Shown here: positions 1 to 9,100 of the stretch, piece after piece
Numbering within the stretch: position 1 is the stretch's first letter
How the letters are laid out: each line of letters begins with the position of its first letter
Assembly (NCBI GenBank): GCA_010093745.1
Contig: MU005969.1
Coordinates: 1 to 64,000, forward strand
Reading direction: 5' to 3'
From: Piedraia hortae CBS 480.64
Taxonomy: Eukaryota
Length of the DNA stretch: 64,000 bases
The notes under the pieces: generated by a model
What the model saw: the letters and a program-made list of their open reading frames with translations, nothing else
Database searches by the model: none
Told to the model about the DNA's origin: nothing
Made by a program: the position numbers and the translations under genes

Positions 1-3000
1 GTAGAGATTTGTATGCAGGTACACATCTGCTCACAATTATAATACGCGGGTCGTCCCGCGCACACACAGCCTCGCCGTAACAGTTTTGGTGTTTTTTTTT
101 TAAATTGGGCTTGTTGGACTTCTGTGTACTGTACATATTGTTGGGGGGGTATGTTGATGGTGTTGTTGCTGTGTATGGCGTTGCTGTGGGGTTTGGGGAG
201 TCTCCTTCGTCGGTGTCTTTGCAATGGAGCAGTTTTCATTCTCTGTCTGCATTAGTACACAGATTCCGTTAGCTAGGGAGCCATCTGAAATGTCCTCTCT
301 GCTCCTCAACTCGCTTGACAAAATATTCAACAGAAAAGTCCTTTGAGTGCTGGGCACCGGTCAGACGAGTGCACTGTCAACTCCCTCCCATACCAAAATC
401 CAAGATCACTATAAATTCGACATCCCCCTTCTGCCTAGACATCAGCTTCTCCAACCCCATCTAACCTCGTTCGAGACCCTCCCGCACGAAACCTTCCCAC
501 CCGGAGCCTCGGGAGTTCCCACAACAAACTCAGGTAATACCCCTCCCCAGCCGCACTGCGCAGTCGCTCTAAGAAGAAGCACGTATTGTCTCCTTCATCT
601 TCCATCTAAATGGTGGCTCTGGTCCTCGTTTCCTTGATTCGCGAACACAATCCGCTATTTCAAGAAAATGCCTGCTCAGCTACTTGGAGACGTTTAGGTT
701 TGGGATGCAGGGTTTTTTATGTGTTTCATTTTGTTTTTGATACCGTTGGGAAGCGGTGATGTTAGTCATTTTTGGGTGAAGTAAGCGAGATTCCCTAGTT
801 CTGTTTCTGTGCGAGGGCCTGGTTGCGCGAGAGATATGGCTTTGATATCCGGGATATATTGGGACGAACGGGAGCATACGCGTTTTTCTGTCCATGGGGC
901 AGGATTACGAACATGGACATTAGGAGACTGTTTGGGAATCGACATGTCATGCAAAGGATATTTTTACGTGTTGTGCACTTGTTTTTGATACTGTTGTGAG
1001 GCGGTGGCGCTTGTCGGTTTAAGTGAAGGATGGGGGCATGTAGAGCTAATCTGGACATTGGAGGCCCGTCGCGCGAGGGCAATGACTGAACCGCGGGTTT
1101 AAGGAGAAAAGCTCCCTACCAGTAAGGCGGACGCGTTTTGTCGAATCTATGGAGATGTACGTTGATATTTCTCATTGGCGTTTCGTAAGGTGATGCAAGA
1201 AGGTGGGGAATGGCCTGTCCGATGTGATGAGGACGTGGACATTTCTTGTCGTCGAGAAGACATGTTCAAGGGTGGGCGGGTTAGGGAACAGATGGCTGTG
1301 GATGAGAGTTGAATATAATTCATGCGCCATGGCTATGGGTCAAGTGGTGATTATAGGCACTAAAGTGCTTCCGCATTGTTCCTGGCGGGATATCGTGAAA
1401 ACTCTTTTTCTCCGCAGGGATCCATGATTTGGGAAGCTTGCTATCTAGGAGTTGTGTTGCGAGACCACTCTTTGACATGGAGACTTAATCCTTTGTCTCG
1501 AAATGGTAGTGGAGATCGCCGACTGAGGTGCCCGTTAAACTTTAAATGCGCTCGAGGACAAGGAATCTAGTTGATGACCAGTGAGCCCGAGAGTCATGAC
1601 TGGCGGAGATCTTCCAGTCCATATCAAGCGCGGAAAGAGAAAACTGAGTTATAGCTGACAAAACAAGTCAGTCTTCGCAGAATAGAGTCACTTTGTCCTC
1701 CTTCAGACGTACTCGATAGTATCCAGTCGGCCTGTGAAATTCGAATGATATCAACCCGATATGGCGAGGAACTCTCTGAAAGTGAACAGATGCAACCCCA
1801 GTGATAAAGTTCAACATGCAATATCTCCAAGGATAAAGTTTCAATGAGTTCCAAACTACCTCGCTCAAAACAGCAGTACTCTTACAATGACAATCGTCGA
1901 CTTGGTGCGTAGTGGTTAGGCATGAGGCCGAAAGTAAGGCATTTGCCACTCTTACAACCGCCCAAATTACAAAAGTCTTCCACTCACAAGTCCGGAAAGC
2001 TCGTCTCACACCTCAAAATCGAACAAGTATTACCCTTTCACGGTACCACCCCCCTTTGAGATATTTTTCGCGCGTACATCCCGTTCAAAACAATCTGGTA
2101 GTGCGAACTAATTCCGCCAAGTGGTGTGGGTCCGGAACATCTCCGCTTCGGATCGGGTCGGGCCGCGATATCAAATTTCCCGGCCGAGAAATTCTTCCAG
2201 CCTTTGATCGCCGTATAGGCATTGAATAAAACCTACACTTGGCTCTCCTCTTGATTGGCTGTGATATAATGCTGCAGGTGCTGAATATCACGGAGACGCT
2301 GTTGGAAAGATTGGGAGACAGCGGAATGGTTGGTGGAACATCTTAAGGCTTGAAATGGAGCGACGAGGGAGAGAGGTTGTTCGCTGAGGTGAGGGTGCGG
2401 GGCTTATTTCGTGATGGGTATAACTTGTATAGCCGACTTCAACTTTAGCTGGCACTCGGTGCATGAGGCGTTAAAGCGCGAGCTTGGGGTTCGATGTGTG
2501 AGGTAGGAGTTTCTTCATTCCAATCTGTACCGTTCTTTGTAGGCTTTGTTGCGCTATTAGGTATTCGAGGAGGAAGGTCAGTAAGCCTTCGAAGCTTGTT
2601 GGGCGCTGAAGGATGTCGTGGCAAACGAACTTGAAAATCTTGTCTAGACACAATGAACTCAGGCAAAGTGGTTCTCCTGGAGGGATCAAGCATCTCGTAG
2701 TAGATCCAGCCCTTCATTACGAAAGAAGTGGCGCTGTAGCAGGTGCAGTTATAGTATGTATCGGGTGTTGTAGACACTTCGCCAGGAATCAAGTGTCATG
2801 ATGATTCATGTGCTTGCATTTTCGAGTGGCTTATTGATTTATGATTGGCTTCTCATTGCTGTCTATGCTATGATGACCTGATTCGCACTGGGTATGATGC
2901 CTGACCGTGCCGCCTTGCAGAGCGAGTAACCCTTGAATGAATGGCGCGTCTTGGCTTTACCGGAAATTTCACATCTTGAGAGCAGCGCTCCACCGAGCAT

Positions 3001-3610
3001 AGTGAGACAAAGGATGACGGTTTGCCATTCAAAAGTGTTTGCTAAATTTCGTCACTTTGTTCTTCAAGATTGCTGCGCCGACGAGGTGCTCATATGTCTT
3101 GAGCCGCGCATTCAAAGCCAAGTTTCTATTTGGTTGGGAGTCTAACAGAAGCATCGTCGCTCATCTCGACTCATTGGAACGATGAGTCATGATAGCCCTT
3201 CCCTTGGCCGCGGGCCTGCCCGTGGAAACAGATCCCCACCGTGAGAGAATTTTTGCCGACAATTCACAGCCACTCGGTGTGATACATCGTTTGGAGAACG
3301 AGTCAGTCGCTGTCAGAAGGTCAGGAGCAACTCCACTATTGTGCTGTGAGTGCGTCGGGAAAGTTTACTGCGGTGGTGTGGGTCAAGTCAAACACGACAC
3401 GCTGGAGTGACACCTTGCTTGGCCCACGACAAATATCTGCACGTGGGTTTCAGTTTCTTTTCACTACACCTTACCTAGGACAAGCAGCCGAGTAAAGCTG
3501 CTTTCTTTTACCGTTTGGCTCTGCTTTTGATTTTATCCTTCTACAAATACACACACTCAACATCTTCGACATCTCCAGCATCTCTGGATCTCCGACATCT
3601 CTATTCAACG

Positions 3611-4118
3611 ATGGGTTATCTCCTCACTGTCATTCTCGCCGCGGCGGGCGCCTGCGCCAGCGTTGCCCCGGTACGATATCTTCCCTCTCTGCATCCAGGC
3701 TGTACACTGACAAAGACCACAGAGCCAAGGCAATGCCAAGTTCGTCACCACGTTCTCGTACTTGCCGCTCGAGACCACCTCTGCGATGAGCAACACGTCT
3801 TCGGTCCAGACGCCTTCGGCCCAGCGCTCCGGTCGTTACACCTGGGGTAATGCTACGTACACGGCTCCCATGGGCACCGCTGTCATCACTACGCTCACTG
3901 CGCTGGAACCCACGGTCACTACCATCACACTCACTGCTCTGGACACGACTCTGAGCACTGTTACGACGCCAGCGCCAACCACGTTTGAACGCCGTGACTG
4001 CCACCTCTCGACTCTTCTCGGCGGACAGGACTGGATCATCACGACGGTGTGCAATGACCCTTCTCCTCCGCTGCCGTGTACCCCTTGCGTCGGGTGCAAT
4101 GCGAATCCTTGTGATTAA
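3611..4118 (+). CDS. Small secreted Thr-rich protein with C-terminal 6-Cys module (paralog A, ~151 aa); exons 3611-3670 and 3723-4118
   Basis: Signal-peptide-like N-terminus MGYLLTVILAAAGACA. A phase-0 intron at 3671-3722 (GTACGA...CTGAC...CAG) joins it in frame to the 3762 ORF. The protein ends ERR-DCHLSTLLGGQDWIITTVCNDPSPPLPCTPCVGCNANPCD*. Confidence 0.85.
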
Positions 4119-5372
4119 GGAATCAGGTGGGCTACAAGGCAGGGTATGATTAGGGACTGGCCAGTGTTGGTCCACGAAATTGCACTGCTTACAATTTCTT
4201 TCCGTTTCATCGTTTTGTGCTGTAGACTGTCCGAGGCTTGAATGTGGCGGTCAGTCGGTCCACATTTGGGCAGCCTTTTCCTGACCTTTTCGTATATCTG
4301 CGTTGTAATTCGAGGCCGTTTTGGAGGATGATCGTAGGCTGAACTAGAGCGTTGCTGTTTTTAAATTCCTATGATAGGATGATGTGGAGCTGCTGTGCGG
4401 AGCAAACGGCCGACAGGCAGGACAGCTGCCACACGTTGCAAGGCACTGCGGCTGCGGTAGGTGAGTATGGCACTTGATACTGCGGGGCCTCTCGAGGATG
4501 CACTCGTCAAGGGCTGTCAGGCTGGCATTGGGCGTACAGCTGCTGTAAAAGAGTGAACGGCTGGGCCAGGACTGAAGCCTTACGTTGCAAGAAGCAGCGG
4601 CGGTGTTAGGTAGCATAAGGCTTTCAGAGACCGCGGAGCCTCTCGAGGATGCTCTCTCCAAGGCCTGGAAGACAGAACTTGAGCGGCGCTTGCTTGTCTG
4701 TGTCACAACCGTCAGCGGACCGCGATCCGGCGGAAACGGGCAATGGATGGCTCTCTCTGCTTGCGAAAAATTGCACCACCATTCCTATAGATTCCAGGCA
4801 GTCTACTGACGCTGCCTCATTGTTGAGTAGGCCTGTCGTTGGGCGTTGAGGGGTGCTGAGCTGCTACAGCGCTGTGACGCCTTGGCCTGAGCAAGCAGCA
4901 CGACTTGTCACCACATCGCTAAGACTTTTTACAGCGCTGTAACTAGAGTTTTCATACAGTAGAAGGCAATGGTTACAAGTATAGGGCATCATAGGAGGGC
5001 TCGGGGACCAGTCTGTGCCTACAGCCATGTGCATCAACGCAAACGTACTCAATGCCATTGCTCCAGAGCCTCTTCAGTACATTCTTCTCCTGCAAAACCG
5101 TTCGTAGTCCCCTTGAACCGGTCCTCGTAAGGTGAATACGTCGCAGTGAGCCTTCAGAGCCCTCGAAGCCCATCACTGGTCCCCGACCACACCCTCCCAA
5201 TACCCAGAAAAAATCACGTGGATTGTTAATTACCTCGATTATCTCTCAAGCTTCTGACCCCTGTCAAGATGCTAACTTGGTTAAAAGCTCAGATCTGTTC
5301 CCACGAATTATTGCCTCCTTCATCCACCTTTCTCTTCCCAAACTAGGCAATCAATCTCTACGCTCGACCAGA

Positions 5373-6034
5373 ATGATGCCTACATTCATTAAATTTGTGT
5401 CTCTCTTTGCGTGCCTGACGAGCACTGTCTCCGGCACGGGTGTACGTACCTTCCTATTTGGTGGTGCAGCGCCAAGACTGACAAACCTTAGCAGCCGAAG
5501 CACCACAAATCATTTGGGCCATATCATACGCACAATGAAACCACTCTCCGTCCATTGACTTGTGCCCCGACCTGGACGATATCTTGTGCTGCCACAGCTT
5601 CGCTTGCTACTTACGGTGGCACCCCTTGTCGCTCTACGGAAGGTGCTGGCGGTACCGCCCCTCATTCATCCTTGGGAGGCACCGGTCATCTTTCATCTTT
5701 CAAAGGCACTGGCCATCACTCATCTTTGGGAGGCACCGGCCCCCATTTGTCTACTGGAGGCACTGCTCCTCGCCTGTCGAGGGGCGGCACTGACAGCATG
5801 CCCAATTTCGAAACCGTTTTTCCTCCTTACTTGCCCCCGGGAATCACTCCTGGAATGCCGAAGCCCCCCGAAGTATCCATAACTAAGATCTCTTTGGCGG
5901 ACTGCCGCACGTCGACCCTACTTGGAGGCCAGGATGGCATCACACAAGTTGTTTGTATCGACGAACCTCCCCATCCTACCCAAGCCTGCACGCCGTGCGT
6001 TGGGTGCAATGTCGATCCTTGCCGTGATGAGTAA
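5373..6034 (+). CDS. Small secreted protein with Gly/His 9-aa repeats and C-terminal 6-Cys module (paralog B, ~203 aa); exons 5373-5441 and 5492-6034
   Basis: Signal-peptide-like N-terminus MMPTFIKFVSLFACLTSTVSG. A phase-0 intron at 5442-5491 (GTACGT...CTGAC...TAG) joins it in frame to the 5555 ORF. The C-terminus DCRTSTLLGGQDGITQVVCIDEPPHPTQACTPCVGCNVDPCRDE* is clearly homologous to paralog A. Confidence 0.85.
5648..5795 (+). repeat. Coding 27-bp (9-aa) tandem repeat GGT(A/G)xxxSx, about 5 copies
   Basis: GGTAPHSSL / GGTGHLSSF / KGTGHHSSL / GGTGPHLST / GGTAPRLSR / GGT. Confidence 0.85.
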
Positions 6035-6125
6035 CAACGAAACAATGAATGCAAAGCACGAATTAGCAGCGAGTAGATAGCCATGAAAGGCTCTTGTCAA
6101 TGATACAGTAAAAATTATCTATCCC

Positions 6126-9100
6126 TTATTCCCCCACCCCCACCCCCACCTCCTTCTCCTTCTCCTTCTCCTCCTCCTCCTCCTCCTCCTCCTCATCGTC
6201 ATCATCGTCATCATCAAGCACCCTCCTAGGCTTAACCTTTCCCTTCTCCATCGTCTCAGCCTCACCCATCTCCACATCCTCTTCATCCGAATCCTCGATC
6301 CGTTCCGCAGACTTGAATTTATTCGAACTCTTCTTCTCCAATCTCCTCCGTTTAGGCTTAACCGTCGGTTCAACGTCACTATCCTCTTGAACAGCAGATT
6401 CGCCCTCCCCTTCCTCATCGTTCTTCTTCTTCCTCTTCGTCCTTCGTTTCTTCTTCTTCTTGATCGGCTGACCATCCGAATCAAACAACTCCTCCTCTTC
6501 AGCCTTAAGACGGAGTTTCTCCTCCTCAAGCCTCTTCGCCATGAGCAGACGATCCTCCTCCGCGATCCTTTCACGTTCTTCTTTAATCTTCCTCCTCTCC
6601 TCCTCCGCCGCCTGGGCAGCTTTCCTCTTCTCCTCCTCGCGCAGAGCAATCTGCTCTTCCCTCCTGCGCTTCGCCTCCTCCAAACGCGCAGAATGCTCTT
6701 GTTCATACGCAGCCTGTCTCTCCGCGGCGGCTGTAAGCTGGCGCTTCATGGTATTCTTCCCCATATTCGCGCGCGCCTCGAGGTCCGCACGGGGAAAGGG
6801 CGGGGTGGGCGAAGCAGCTATCGTCAAAAACGAAGCGATCGCATCATCGAGGTCGGAGGCTGCGGTGTTTATCTCTTCGAGACTGCGCTCGGTTTCGGGA
6901 AGGGAGATTATGAGCTGGGCAAGTTGCATCTGGACGAAAGCGACGTTGAAGGCGAAGTGGATGTTTTCGGGCGATTGGACGAGGGCTTGACGGCTTAGGT
7001 CAAGAGCGGTTTTGTAGCATTCGAGTTTTTTCTCGTGACGGCCTCGTTGGAGCCAGACCCGGCCGAGACAGGCGATGAGATGAGAGTCGATCACGCCGTG
7101 GTGTTTGCTGCGTTGGAGGGCCAGTTCGTAGTTTTCGATGCTGCGCGCCCATTGTTTTGTTTCCGCGAAGATGTGGCCTAGGTTGATGTGTACGGAGGGA
7201 GAGGTGCGGCGGAGGCTCTCGCGGACCCGCGACAGGATTTGGATGCCTGCGCTGACGTCGCGTTTGTCTTCGATTAGGGCTATGGCGAGGCCTTGGGCGG
7301 CGAAGGCGTTCTTGGGGTCGAGGGAGAGGATTTTGTCGAAGAATTCGACGGCGCGCACGTAGGTTTTGCTGCGTTTTTCCTTGTCTTGGTCTGTTTCCCG
7401 CCGCATCTCACGTGCAACGGTAAGGTGCAGGTTGCCCATGGCAGCGAGGGCATAGAGATCATGCTTGTCATAGTGCTGCAGCGTGTGTTTGTGGTGACGC
7501 TGTTCCTGGTCCTCGTTGAGATGCGGCGTGCGCTTCTTGTGGCGGTGGAGGTACCAGCCATAGAGGCCGCGGACGTCGAGGTTGCCGATGTTGGCCTCCA
7601 GCAGCTCTTTGAGAGCGTCGCCCGCTCCGGGATCACGGCGGTCCAGGGCAATGCAGGCCACCCGCGCCTTGGCATCTACGTAGTTGGGATGACGCTGCAG
7701 CAGATCGTGGTAGACCTTGACAGCCTCATCCACGAGTCCTTCTGCCTCGTACGTCCGACCCAGATTGAACGAGATGGTCGTCACCAGCGCATCCGAGTCA
7801 ACGTCCTCGCCCGCGTCGACGTGGACGCAGGCCCCCAACGCCGTCTGGAAGCTCTCCAGCGCCTGGGAATAGGCAGCGGTGTGGAAGTGGAAGCAGCCAA
7901 TGTTGTTCAACAACTGCGGGCTCAGCAGCTTCCTCTTGGCCCTCAGCTTCGCCTCGCTATCGAGATCGCCTTCAACTGCCAGACGCTCGTCGTCGTCGGC
8001 AATCTCGTCGAGCTCCATCTTCTCAACCTGCTGCAGACACGCCAGGGCTCGGTCAGGAGCGTCGCGTTCATACAGTCGGGCCAAGTTTAGCAAAACTACG
8101 GGGTCTGGACTGACGTTCCGTCGGGAGTCCTTCCACGCCGCCCGCACCTGCTCTAGTAGTCCAATGGCCTTGTTCCTCTCGACGCTGCGGTCCTCTCTGC
8201 CGTCTCGTCCGCCGCCAAAGTCGTCTTCGGCGTACAAGATGCCCAGCAGCGTCAATGCCTCGATGCTCTTGGCTCCGCCCGCTGCCAGCACCTTCTCAAG
8301 GCCGAACTTGGCACCGTCCGCGTCTTGCATCAGCGTCTTGAGCTGTGCGGCACCGAACTTGGCCGGCAGAAACCCAGCCTCATCTCCACCACGCGCTTGG
8401 TCAGCCTTTGCATAATACTCAGCCGCACGCGCCAAGTCGCCGACAAAATGCTCCTTGCGCGCCAGCAGGAACCAGCCGTCAGAGGCAACGGCATTGACAT
8501 CTGTCTGCGCAATCGCCCGTCGCGCGAGCTGCTCCACGCGATCCCACATCTTCCGCAACAGATAGTACTGTCCAAATGTTGCGTTGGCGAGCGCCAGCGT
8601 ATCATCCTGCCGGTACGCCGCTTGCGTATGCACCGTCATTGCCTTCTTGTACAACGGGCTAAAAAATTTGACATCCGTCGGCGAGTATTTGTTACTGGAA
8701 TCAAGGTAGAAGAGGCCAAGCAGTGCGTTGGCAACGGCTGACTCTGGATTGACGTCTAGAGCACGCTGCCACGCCGCTCGTGCCGGCTCTTTGTGCCGCA
8801 GCTGCCACAGACAGCAGCCGATGCCGATGCGCGGGTCCGGCGATACCAGCCCCGGCGCTGCAGCCAGCGTCTTCTGGTACAGCCCGAGGGCATCGCCGTA
8901 GCGGCCCAGGGAATACTGCACGCGTGCCTTTCCGATCATGGCCATTACGTTCCGCCCGTTCGACGCCTTTAGCGCATCGTCGAAGCACTTGGCTGCCTGC
9001 CGCAGCGTTTCTGCCTTGTCACCGCCGCCTCCAGCCCCTCCACTCACTTTACCAGGTTGCATCGACGCTCGCAGCAGATGCAGCGTGCCTTTGGCCAGGA

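Follow-up and report, generated by a model that had tools for sequence, protein, structure and literature searches.

There are two genes on the forward strand of Piedraia hortae CBS 480.64 contig MU005969.1 (assembly GCA_010093745.1) whose products end in a related segment of about 40 amino acids that carries six cysteines. They are located at positions 3611-4118 (gene 1) and 5373-6034 (gene 2) of the window, by which we mean the whole 64,000-nucleotide stretch analysed, positions 1 to 64,000 of the contig. The shared segment, hereafter called the module, defines a six-cysteine family of one black-fungus clade that is both real and undescribed. Our best explanation, which we favour tentatively and at somewhat less than an even chance, is that these spliced paralogs encode probably secreted precursors, and that the gene 1 product yields a mini-protein that is released by a Kex2-type protease and binds the wall or matrix of the fungus itself. 

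Two spliced paralogs with a common module

Gene 1 extends on the plus strand from an ATG at 3611 to a stop codon at 4116-4118, and its spliced product has 151 amino acids. Exon 1 (3611-3670) consists of 20 codons for a predicted signal peptide, the sole basis for which is hydropathy (best 10-residue Kyte-Doolittle mean 2.44). It is followed by a 52-nucleotide phase-0 intron (3671-3722) of the form GTACGA..ACTGAC..CAG, wherein the branch-like ACTGAC is located at 3706, and exon 2 then occupies 3723-4118, stop codon included. This splice model is supported by an exact GenBank protein. The 151-amino acid hypothetical protein K470DRAFT_293845 of the same strain is identical letter for letter to the spliced translation, N-terminus included, and is the single near-length match to the exon 2 product among 16 candidates (100% identity). 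One contig from sequencing run X2 covers positions 3722-3990, and no contig bridges the intron. Exon 2 begins with a Ser/Thr-rich region (3723-3989; 38% Ser plus Thr) that includes two N-glycosylation sequons and is a likely pro-region. Next comes Arg110-Arg111 (3990-3995), a predicted Kex2 site that is the only dibasic site in the protein and is separated by one residue from the first module cysteine (C1). The module, D112-D151 plus the stop codon (3996-4118), has the spacing C-x16-C-x8-C-x2-C-x2-C-x4-C.

Gene 2, also on the plus strand, begins with an ATG at 5373, ends with a stop codon at 6032-6034 and encodes 203 amino acids without internal stops. Its exon 1 (5373-5441) provides 23 codons for a signal peptide that is again predicted solely from hydropathy (best 10-residue mean 2.15), and is covered by an X2 contig over positions 5377-5441. 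The phase-0 intron that follows (5442-5491; 50 nucleotides) has the form GTACGT..ACTGAC..TAG. One contig from run X2, whose kind ('RNA') is an automatic guess rather than a stated label, joins 5441 directly to 5492 with 65 letters on the shorter side, skipping exactly the 5442-5491 segment with its GT..AG ends, and this joint is absent from DNA run X1. Therefore, gene 2 is transcribed, and is spliced at the first AG. Exon 2 encodes a spacer rich in Gly, Ser, Thr, His and Pro (5492-5899) that includes 3.3 copies of a 27-base-pair (9-codon) repeat at 5654-5741. The spacer has no dibasic site, and the nearest Arg is located 40 residues before C1. The module, D160-E203 plus the stop codon (5900-6034), has the spacing C-x16-C-x10-C-x2-C-x2-C-x4-C. 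Searches of the protein collection did not recover the gene 2 product, either by its tail (98-314 amino acids) or by a profile that includes this tail (84-2000 amino acids), and thus the gene is probably unannotated in that collection. The original prediction, made from the letters alone, had described two same-strand split genes with phase-0 introns and a shared tail pattern. All of these features are present in the coordinates and spliced translations, and for gene 2 the splicing itself has now been seen.

The two proteins have only the module in common, at a length of 38 and 40 amino acids, with cysteine spacings of 16, 8, 2, 2 and 4 versus 16, 10, 2, 2 and 4. When the exon 2 products are compared by BLASTP, the tail is the single significant block (27 of 42 residues identical; E 3e-14), and nothing else appears below E 13. 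The 31 codons that align without gaps carry 30 mismatches, distributed as 5, 6 and 19 over codon positions 1, 2 and 3, and the proportions of differing silent and replacement sites (pS and pN) are 0.82 and 0.17. These figures indicate an old duplication in which silent sites are saturated and the module is under purifying selection. They agree, as do flanks that cannot be aligned between genera, with the earlier claim that everything except the tail has diverged and that selection acts on the module. Also supported is the picture of low-complexity flanks that can be exchanged for one another, on proteins that are probably secreted.

A six-frame scan of the window places the tail pattern at these two locations only, and no further module copies were found in the 16,946,159 bases of the genome, although such counts are lower bounds. 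An NxxPC ending and a longer loop are shared by the two Piedraia modules and are the only other signs of a duplication within the Piedraia lineage. A module tree groups the pair at only 73/73, which is too weak to be used. The X2 contigs cover neither the modules nor the stretch between the genes, and this blank was given no weight as evidence.

A module family in one clade of black fungi

Sixteen modules were collected in total, 14 of which are found outside Piedraia. A profile built from the two Piedraia tails and run against 1.84 billion representative sequences gave seven matches, which comprise gene 1, four relatives with the full cysteine pattern and two false repeat proteins. The latter were dropped from the family, one being a bacterial-type Ig/cadherin repeat protein (P0006) and the other a tandem repeat without the cysteine pattern (P0009). 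A six-sequence profile then recovered 14 proteins among 1,288 candidates. Scans of metagenomes gave 83 stretches with the two-sequence alignment, none of which was confirmed, and 41 with the six-sequence alignment, of which one was confirmed. These searches were limited by words or by representatives, and the range described here holds among the proteins searched.

Outside Piedraia, Friedmanniomyces endolithicus accounts for six clusters and Teratosphaeriaceae sp. CCFEE 6253 for two proteins; the other carriers are Teratosphaeria destructans, T. nubilosa, Baudoinia panamericana and three environmental proteins. Baudoinia and Friedmanniomyces are filed under Teratosphaeriaceae and Piedraia under Piedraiaceae, a family described as clustering within Teratosphaeriaceae, but unstably (PMC4312929). 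Thus, the module had been correctly called lineage-specific if the lineage is taken as Teratosphaeriaceae plus Piedraia, but it is not restricted to Piedraia. The sole named exception to Teratosphaeriaceae is P0015, which is labelled Rachicladosporium monterosium and shares a 90% cluster with proteins of Friedmanniomyces. This label possibly reflects a mixed or mislabelled assembly.

All 14 modules outside Piedraia have the spacing C-x16-C-x6-C-x2-C-x2-C-x4-C, and only the third gap is longer in Piedraia (x8 or x10). Eleven of the 30 core positions are invariant in all 16 modules, namely the six cysteines, Thr5, Gln10, Ile13 and, within C-x-P-C-x-G-C, the Pro and Gly residues, while pairwise core identity ranges from 15 to 30 of 30. 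There is no conserved His or Asp column in the alignment, and net charge ranges from -3 to +2 (-2 and -3 in Piedraia). In P0014, a cluster member outside the 16-module set, the Gly of C-x-P-C-x-G-C is replaced by Arg. The two proteins of CCFEE 6253 (P0030 and P0031) have KRTPQG at the predicted hairpin turn, which places a KR inside the module, and their tails carry repeated KVLARDA units.

No publication text was found that contains any of four member locus tags, the string CTPCVGCN or the cysteine spacing, and no title or abstract opening among the literature matches concerns the family; the coverage excluded subscription journals and supplements, and secretome or orthogroup tables in supplements (e.g. 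PMC7082219, bioRxiv 10.1101/127746) could list members of the family.

Searches for known domains and folds

That the module is unrecognised, as the original prediction had it, agrees with every collection searched. In Pfam, the best match for the two exon 2 products and their tails has E 0.075, below the cut-off, and no match at curated thresholds was obtained for the Piedraia proteins or the scanned relatives (CFEM, CBM1, hevein, LysM, EGF and TNFR included). Searches of Pfam and NCBIfam with six modules gave no family common to more than one member. Among PDB sequences, thrombospondin-1 appeared with a single tail (E 0.24-0.29) and was rejected because it vanished when the profile was used, which returned only cytochrome oxidase subunit 1 at E 1.4 or worse. 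Hydrophobins (C-CC-C-C-CC-C) and the surface-active hyphosphere (HFS) proteins (C-CXXXC-C-C-C-C-C) are likewise small and rich in Cys, are secreted and occur at the hyphal surface (PMC8596622), and they might be functional analogues. However, both have eight cysteines, whereas the module has six single cysteines and no CC in 10 of 10 cases.

Structure models were made with AlphaFold2 for the gene 1 tail, using 16 sequences, and for the protein P0011. The former has a mean predicted local distance difference test (pLDDT) score of 65.6, a predicted template modelling (pTM) score of 0.28 and strands at residues 5-12 and 15-22. The corresponding values for P0011 are 54.6 and 0.26, with strands at 40-45 and 50-55 and with confidence below 50 over residues 1-36, a region that ends at KR 35-36. 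Within each model, the sum of the strand ends equals that of the C1 and C2 positions (27 and 95, respectively), which corresponds to the same hairpin register. We therefore infer that C1 and C2 may be opposed at the base of a hairpin, with Gln10 at its turn.

With neither model did Foldseek return a PDB match at E<=0.001, and arenicin-3, which appeared at E 6.6, represents a generic hairpin. VIA-align gave no hit at Z>=2 among 48,161 chains with either model, and the BFVD fold search gave no match. In the ESM Atlas, the best feature score (0.85) was to a cluster without a name, and the Baudoinia module had no usable match. These fold blanks are soft, given weak models of 43 and 74 residues, and do not demonstrate a new fold.

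Layouts of the module proteins and predicted processing

The complete members have N-termini that are hydrophobic by hydropathy, and the cysteine number is even. The module is located at the protein end, with 0-3 residues after it, in 6 of the 16 proteins, and is followed by a 28-residue tail in the two Teratosphaeria proteins. In the remaining eight it is internal, and each of these proteins ends in a hydrophobic segment that resembles a glycosylphosphatidylinositol (GPI) signal, as judged by hydropathy only. Seven of the eight GPI-type members have KR two residues after the sixth cysteine (C6), and the eighth has EER at this location. Neither Piedraia protein ends in a hydrophobic C-terminus. 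At metagenomic locus L007, the gene for P0008 has an upstream exon that resembles a signal peptide and that the P0008 sequence itself lacks; a phase-0 donor comes after this exon, which is the arrangement seen in Piedraia.

Basic sites were counted in the 8 residues before C1 for 10 representatives among the 16 members, with a single protein standing for each Friedmanniomyces and CCFEE group. The site rules are from PMC8528282, and expected counts were derived from the remainder of these proteins. Four of the 10 have a strict KR/RR or LxxR site versus 0.45 expected (P 6e-4), a count that was made on homologues and hence measures conservation rather than independent events. Two looser motifs, which were picked after the data had been viewed, give higher counts: KR/RR or [LIVM]xxR in 6 representatives versus 0.64 expected, and any Arg in 8 versus 1.8 expected. 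The module thus appears usually to be bracketed by Kex2-type sites, a feature that is absent from the original prediction. Because such a site closes the gene 1 spacer just before the module, this spacer is more likely to be a removable pro-region than a stalk. The variable stalks that had been proposed for both proteins therefore still suit gene 2, which has no site before its module, but not gene 1 or many of the relatives, in which a Kex2-type site ends the spacer.

A close parallel to this layout is found in the Kex2 pro-domain-processed (K2PP) secreted proteins (Outram et al. 2021, PMC8528282), which have a signal peptide, an unstructured N-terminal region that KR/RR or LxxR closes, and a compact mature domain. 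Gene 1, the T. destructans protein, P0010 and P0011 appear to share the arrangement, with an N-terminus that is hydrophobic by hydropathy in the place of the signal peptide, and gene 1 has the closing feature (RR at 110-111) that is missing from gene 2. Nevertheless, the K2PP class was defined for effectors of plant pathogens, and the search for its site was confined to the first half of each protein, whereas most module carriers are not plant pathogens and the gene 1 site lies at 110-111 of 151 residues, or 73% of the length. The pair may well work like a K2PP secreted protein, but we do not file it there because the gene 1 site is outside the first half, gene 2 has no site and the cleavage is a prediction.

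Upstream of its module, P0010 (334 amino acids) has several units with two cysteines each (C-G-x-x-G-I-[ST]-C), and QKR closes two of them. The upstream part of this protein may be a KEP-like region that has become fused to the module. In Kex2-processed repeat proteins (KEPs), peptides are described as freed from a secreted precursor at basic sites, and P0010 has three KR sites upstream of its module, but KEPs are built from repeated peptide units and each of the 16 module proteins has a single module.

Possible functions of the module

In the mechanism that we favour, both precursors would enter the secretory route, as predicted from hydropathy. A Kex2-type protease would cut the gene 1 product after R111, freeing the 40-residue D112-D151 peptide. 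Three disulfides would form in the module, with a small knot predicted at C3-C6, and the predicted beta-hairpin from C1 to C2 would put these two cysteines across from each other. Thr5, Gln10 and Ile13 of the hairpin, together with the C-x-P-C-x-G-C segment, may create a surface that recognizes a conserved partner of the fungus's own making. Gene 2, which lacks a cleavage site, would display its module on a Gly/His-rich tether, and in GPI-type relatives the module might be kept at the wall and then released by a cut at the KR behind it.

The carriers are described from rock in Antarctica, surfaces exposed to alcohol, leaves of Eucalyptus and hair. Because fungi of such different habitats keep the same residues, a fungus-made ligand is favoured over a host target, and GPI-type and Ser/Thr-rich contexts cause us to place the module at the wall. 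The hyphae of P. hortae are embedded in a fibrillar matrix, the make-up of which the authors of PMC11551259 were unable to establish.

Several observations weigh against this explanation, in addition to the limits on the site counts. Secretion, cleavage, disulfides and binding are all predicted or inferred from sequence rather than from protein, and the assignment of the target to the wall or matrix draws on ecology and architecture only. In gene 2 and in the T. nubilosa member, the 30 residues that precede C1 include no Arg, and LxxR does not describe the sites of Baudoinia and CCFEE 6253. Furthermore, the structure models are weak, their C3-C6 part scores only 54-65, and the disulfide pairing cannot be read from them.

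The strongest alternative, which is nevertheless unlikely, is that the module is kept on an O-glycosylated stalk and acts as an adhesin or cross-linker that links to wall proteins, matrix or substrate, partly by intermolecular disulfides, which corresponds to the adhesin reading of the original prediction. The lack of a basic site before the gene 2 module fits this arrangement, as do the GPI-like tails and Ser/Thr-rich regions of 8 of the 16 members and the fibrillar matrix that holds P. hortae hyphae together (PMC11551259). There is also a precedent in PIR wall proteins, which can attach by disulfides through a Cys-rich domain at the C-terminus, and which are secreted, as module proteins probably are, and resemble them in being Ser/Thr-rich and in having a Kex2 site, a terminal Cys-rich domain with C-x16-C, an optional GPI signal and a conserved Gln (bioRxiv 10.1101/2024.07.18.603779). 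However, the PIR domain has four or five cysteines and the spacing C-x64-C-x16-C-x12-C (same source), which is unlike that of the module. The whole proteins have no Pfam match, and the PIR repeat DGQ[IVP]Q is absent from 10 of 10 modules, the modules alone having been scanned. A stalk-bound module is also difficult to reconcile with the only dibasic site of gene 1, which directly precedes the module, and with the KR found right after the module in seven of the eight GPI-type members, which would cut it from its anchor. Moreover, neither Piedraia protein has the hydrophobic C-terminus of the anchored members.

Release by a Kex2-type protease would also suit an antimicrobial or competition peptide like those of the AFP/BP/NFAP2 group (PMC13525654), although we consider this quite improbable. 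The prepro layout, the six cysteines and the small mature size are alike, and the levomeric-1 gamma-core C-x3-9-C-x-G, as defined in that source, is present in all eight non-Piedraia representatives. The same pattern fails in both Piedraia modules, and the dextromeric form is found in 0 of 10. In addition, the superfamily is described as basic (PMC13525654), whereas the module is not; the cysteine spacing is different, the module precursors range from 74 to 511 amino acids and some are GPI-type. The predicted hairpin is at C1-C2 and thus off the gamma-core, and there is no match to members in Pfam, in PDB or by fold, the fold test being soft with weak models.

A more elaborate scheme, to which we assign a slightly smaller chance again, is that in the Teratosphaeriaceae black fungi the module serves the extracellular matrix as a cement unit that reshuffles disulfides and has a new mini-fold. 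Piedraia would have duplicated it into a released and a tethered form, both with a lengthened, Pro-rich loop, and these would weld hyphae together and to the Cys-rich cuticle of hair, giving rise to the stone-hard nodules of black piedra.

It is doubtful, more so than the cement scheme, that the module is a secreted peptide that binds Cu or Zn through its C-x2-C-x2-C-x4-C cluster. Four cysteines are close together, AlphaFold is least sure at this cluster, as can occur for metal sites, and the spacers of gene 2 and Friedmanniomyces are rich in His (5-8%). However, the secretory route oxidizes thiols, and the six cysteines are even in number and invariant. No His or Asp column is conserved, and the ferredoxin-type 4Fe-4S pattern CxxCxxCxxxC occurs in 0 of 10 modules. 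The earlier suggestion of a disulfide-bonded or metal-binding module can therefore be narrowed, with disulfides favoured in a secreted protein of this kind and a metal possible but less likely.

Marginally fainter still is the prospect of a self-signalling peptide, which a receptor of the fungus would sense as a cue for development or density. Kex2-type release, small size and non-Cys residues that are strongly kept across lifestyles would be expected of such a signal, but the module is single and non-repeated, anchored and tethered forms exist, and no receptor gene is seen beside the pair, whose neighbours encode a tetratricopeptide repeat (TPR) protein and Sec8. The least probable function is that of a host-directed effector, one of the readings offered in the original prediction: the small, secreted, Cys-rich prepro layout recalls K2PP effectors (PMC8528282) and the module is carried by a pair of Teratosphaeria species that includes at least one leaf pathogen of Eucalyptus, but saprobes of rock and alcohol vapour conserve it equally with leaf and hair dwellers, its non-Cys residues are highly conserved rather than diversified, and P. 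hortae grows on dead hair shafts without epidermal involvement (PMC11551259).

Neighbouring sequences

Downstream of gene 2 there is a gene on the minus strand for the TPR protein, which we take to be Ctr9-like, followed by Sec8. Gene 2 and this convergent gene end 91 base pairs apart (6034-6126), and an X2 contig covers 6069-6123. Because the two ends are so close, the 3' ends of the two genes probably overlap. Between gene 1 and gene 2 there is a degenerate tandem duplication of approximately 150 base pairs (4418-4534 and 4567-4685; 73-75% identity). Plus-strand frames in this region resemble a broken coding stretch, including a 77-amino acid open reading frame (4576-4809), and have no Pfam match. 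A match of the intergenic frame to another contig of the genome (C3; E 0.046) was taken as chance. Upstream of gene 1 there is no convincing open reading frame as far as the contig start (window 1-3500), and a 42-base-pair direct repeat is located at 731-772 and 979-1020.

Implications

The kind of protein encoded by these genes is a familiar one, namely a fungal secreted Cys-rich prepro protein, but its cysteine framework matches no family or structure searched. The module marks one clade of black fungi that tolerate stress, with rock dwellers, tree pathogens and a coloniser of human hair among its members. Its released, tethered and GPI-type layouts suggest a reusable binding unit, and its size of 40 residues permits synthesis, solution by nuclear magnetic resonance and direct assay. 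The P. hortae genome (16.95 Mbp; 7,572 genes) is the smallest and has the fewest genes among 101 Dothideomycetes (PMC7082219), and two copies of the module survive in it. As the make-up of the piedra matrix is also described as unknown (PMC11551259), the pair is a testable candidate.

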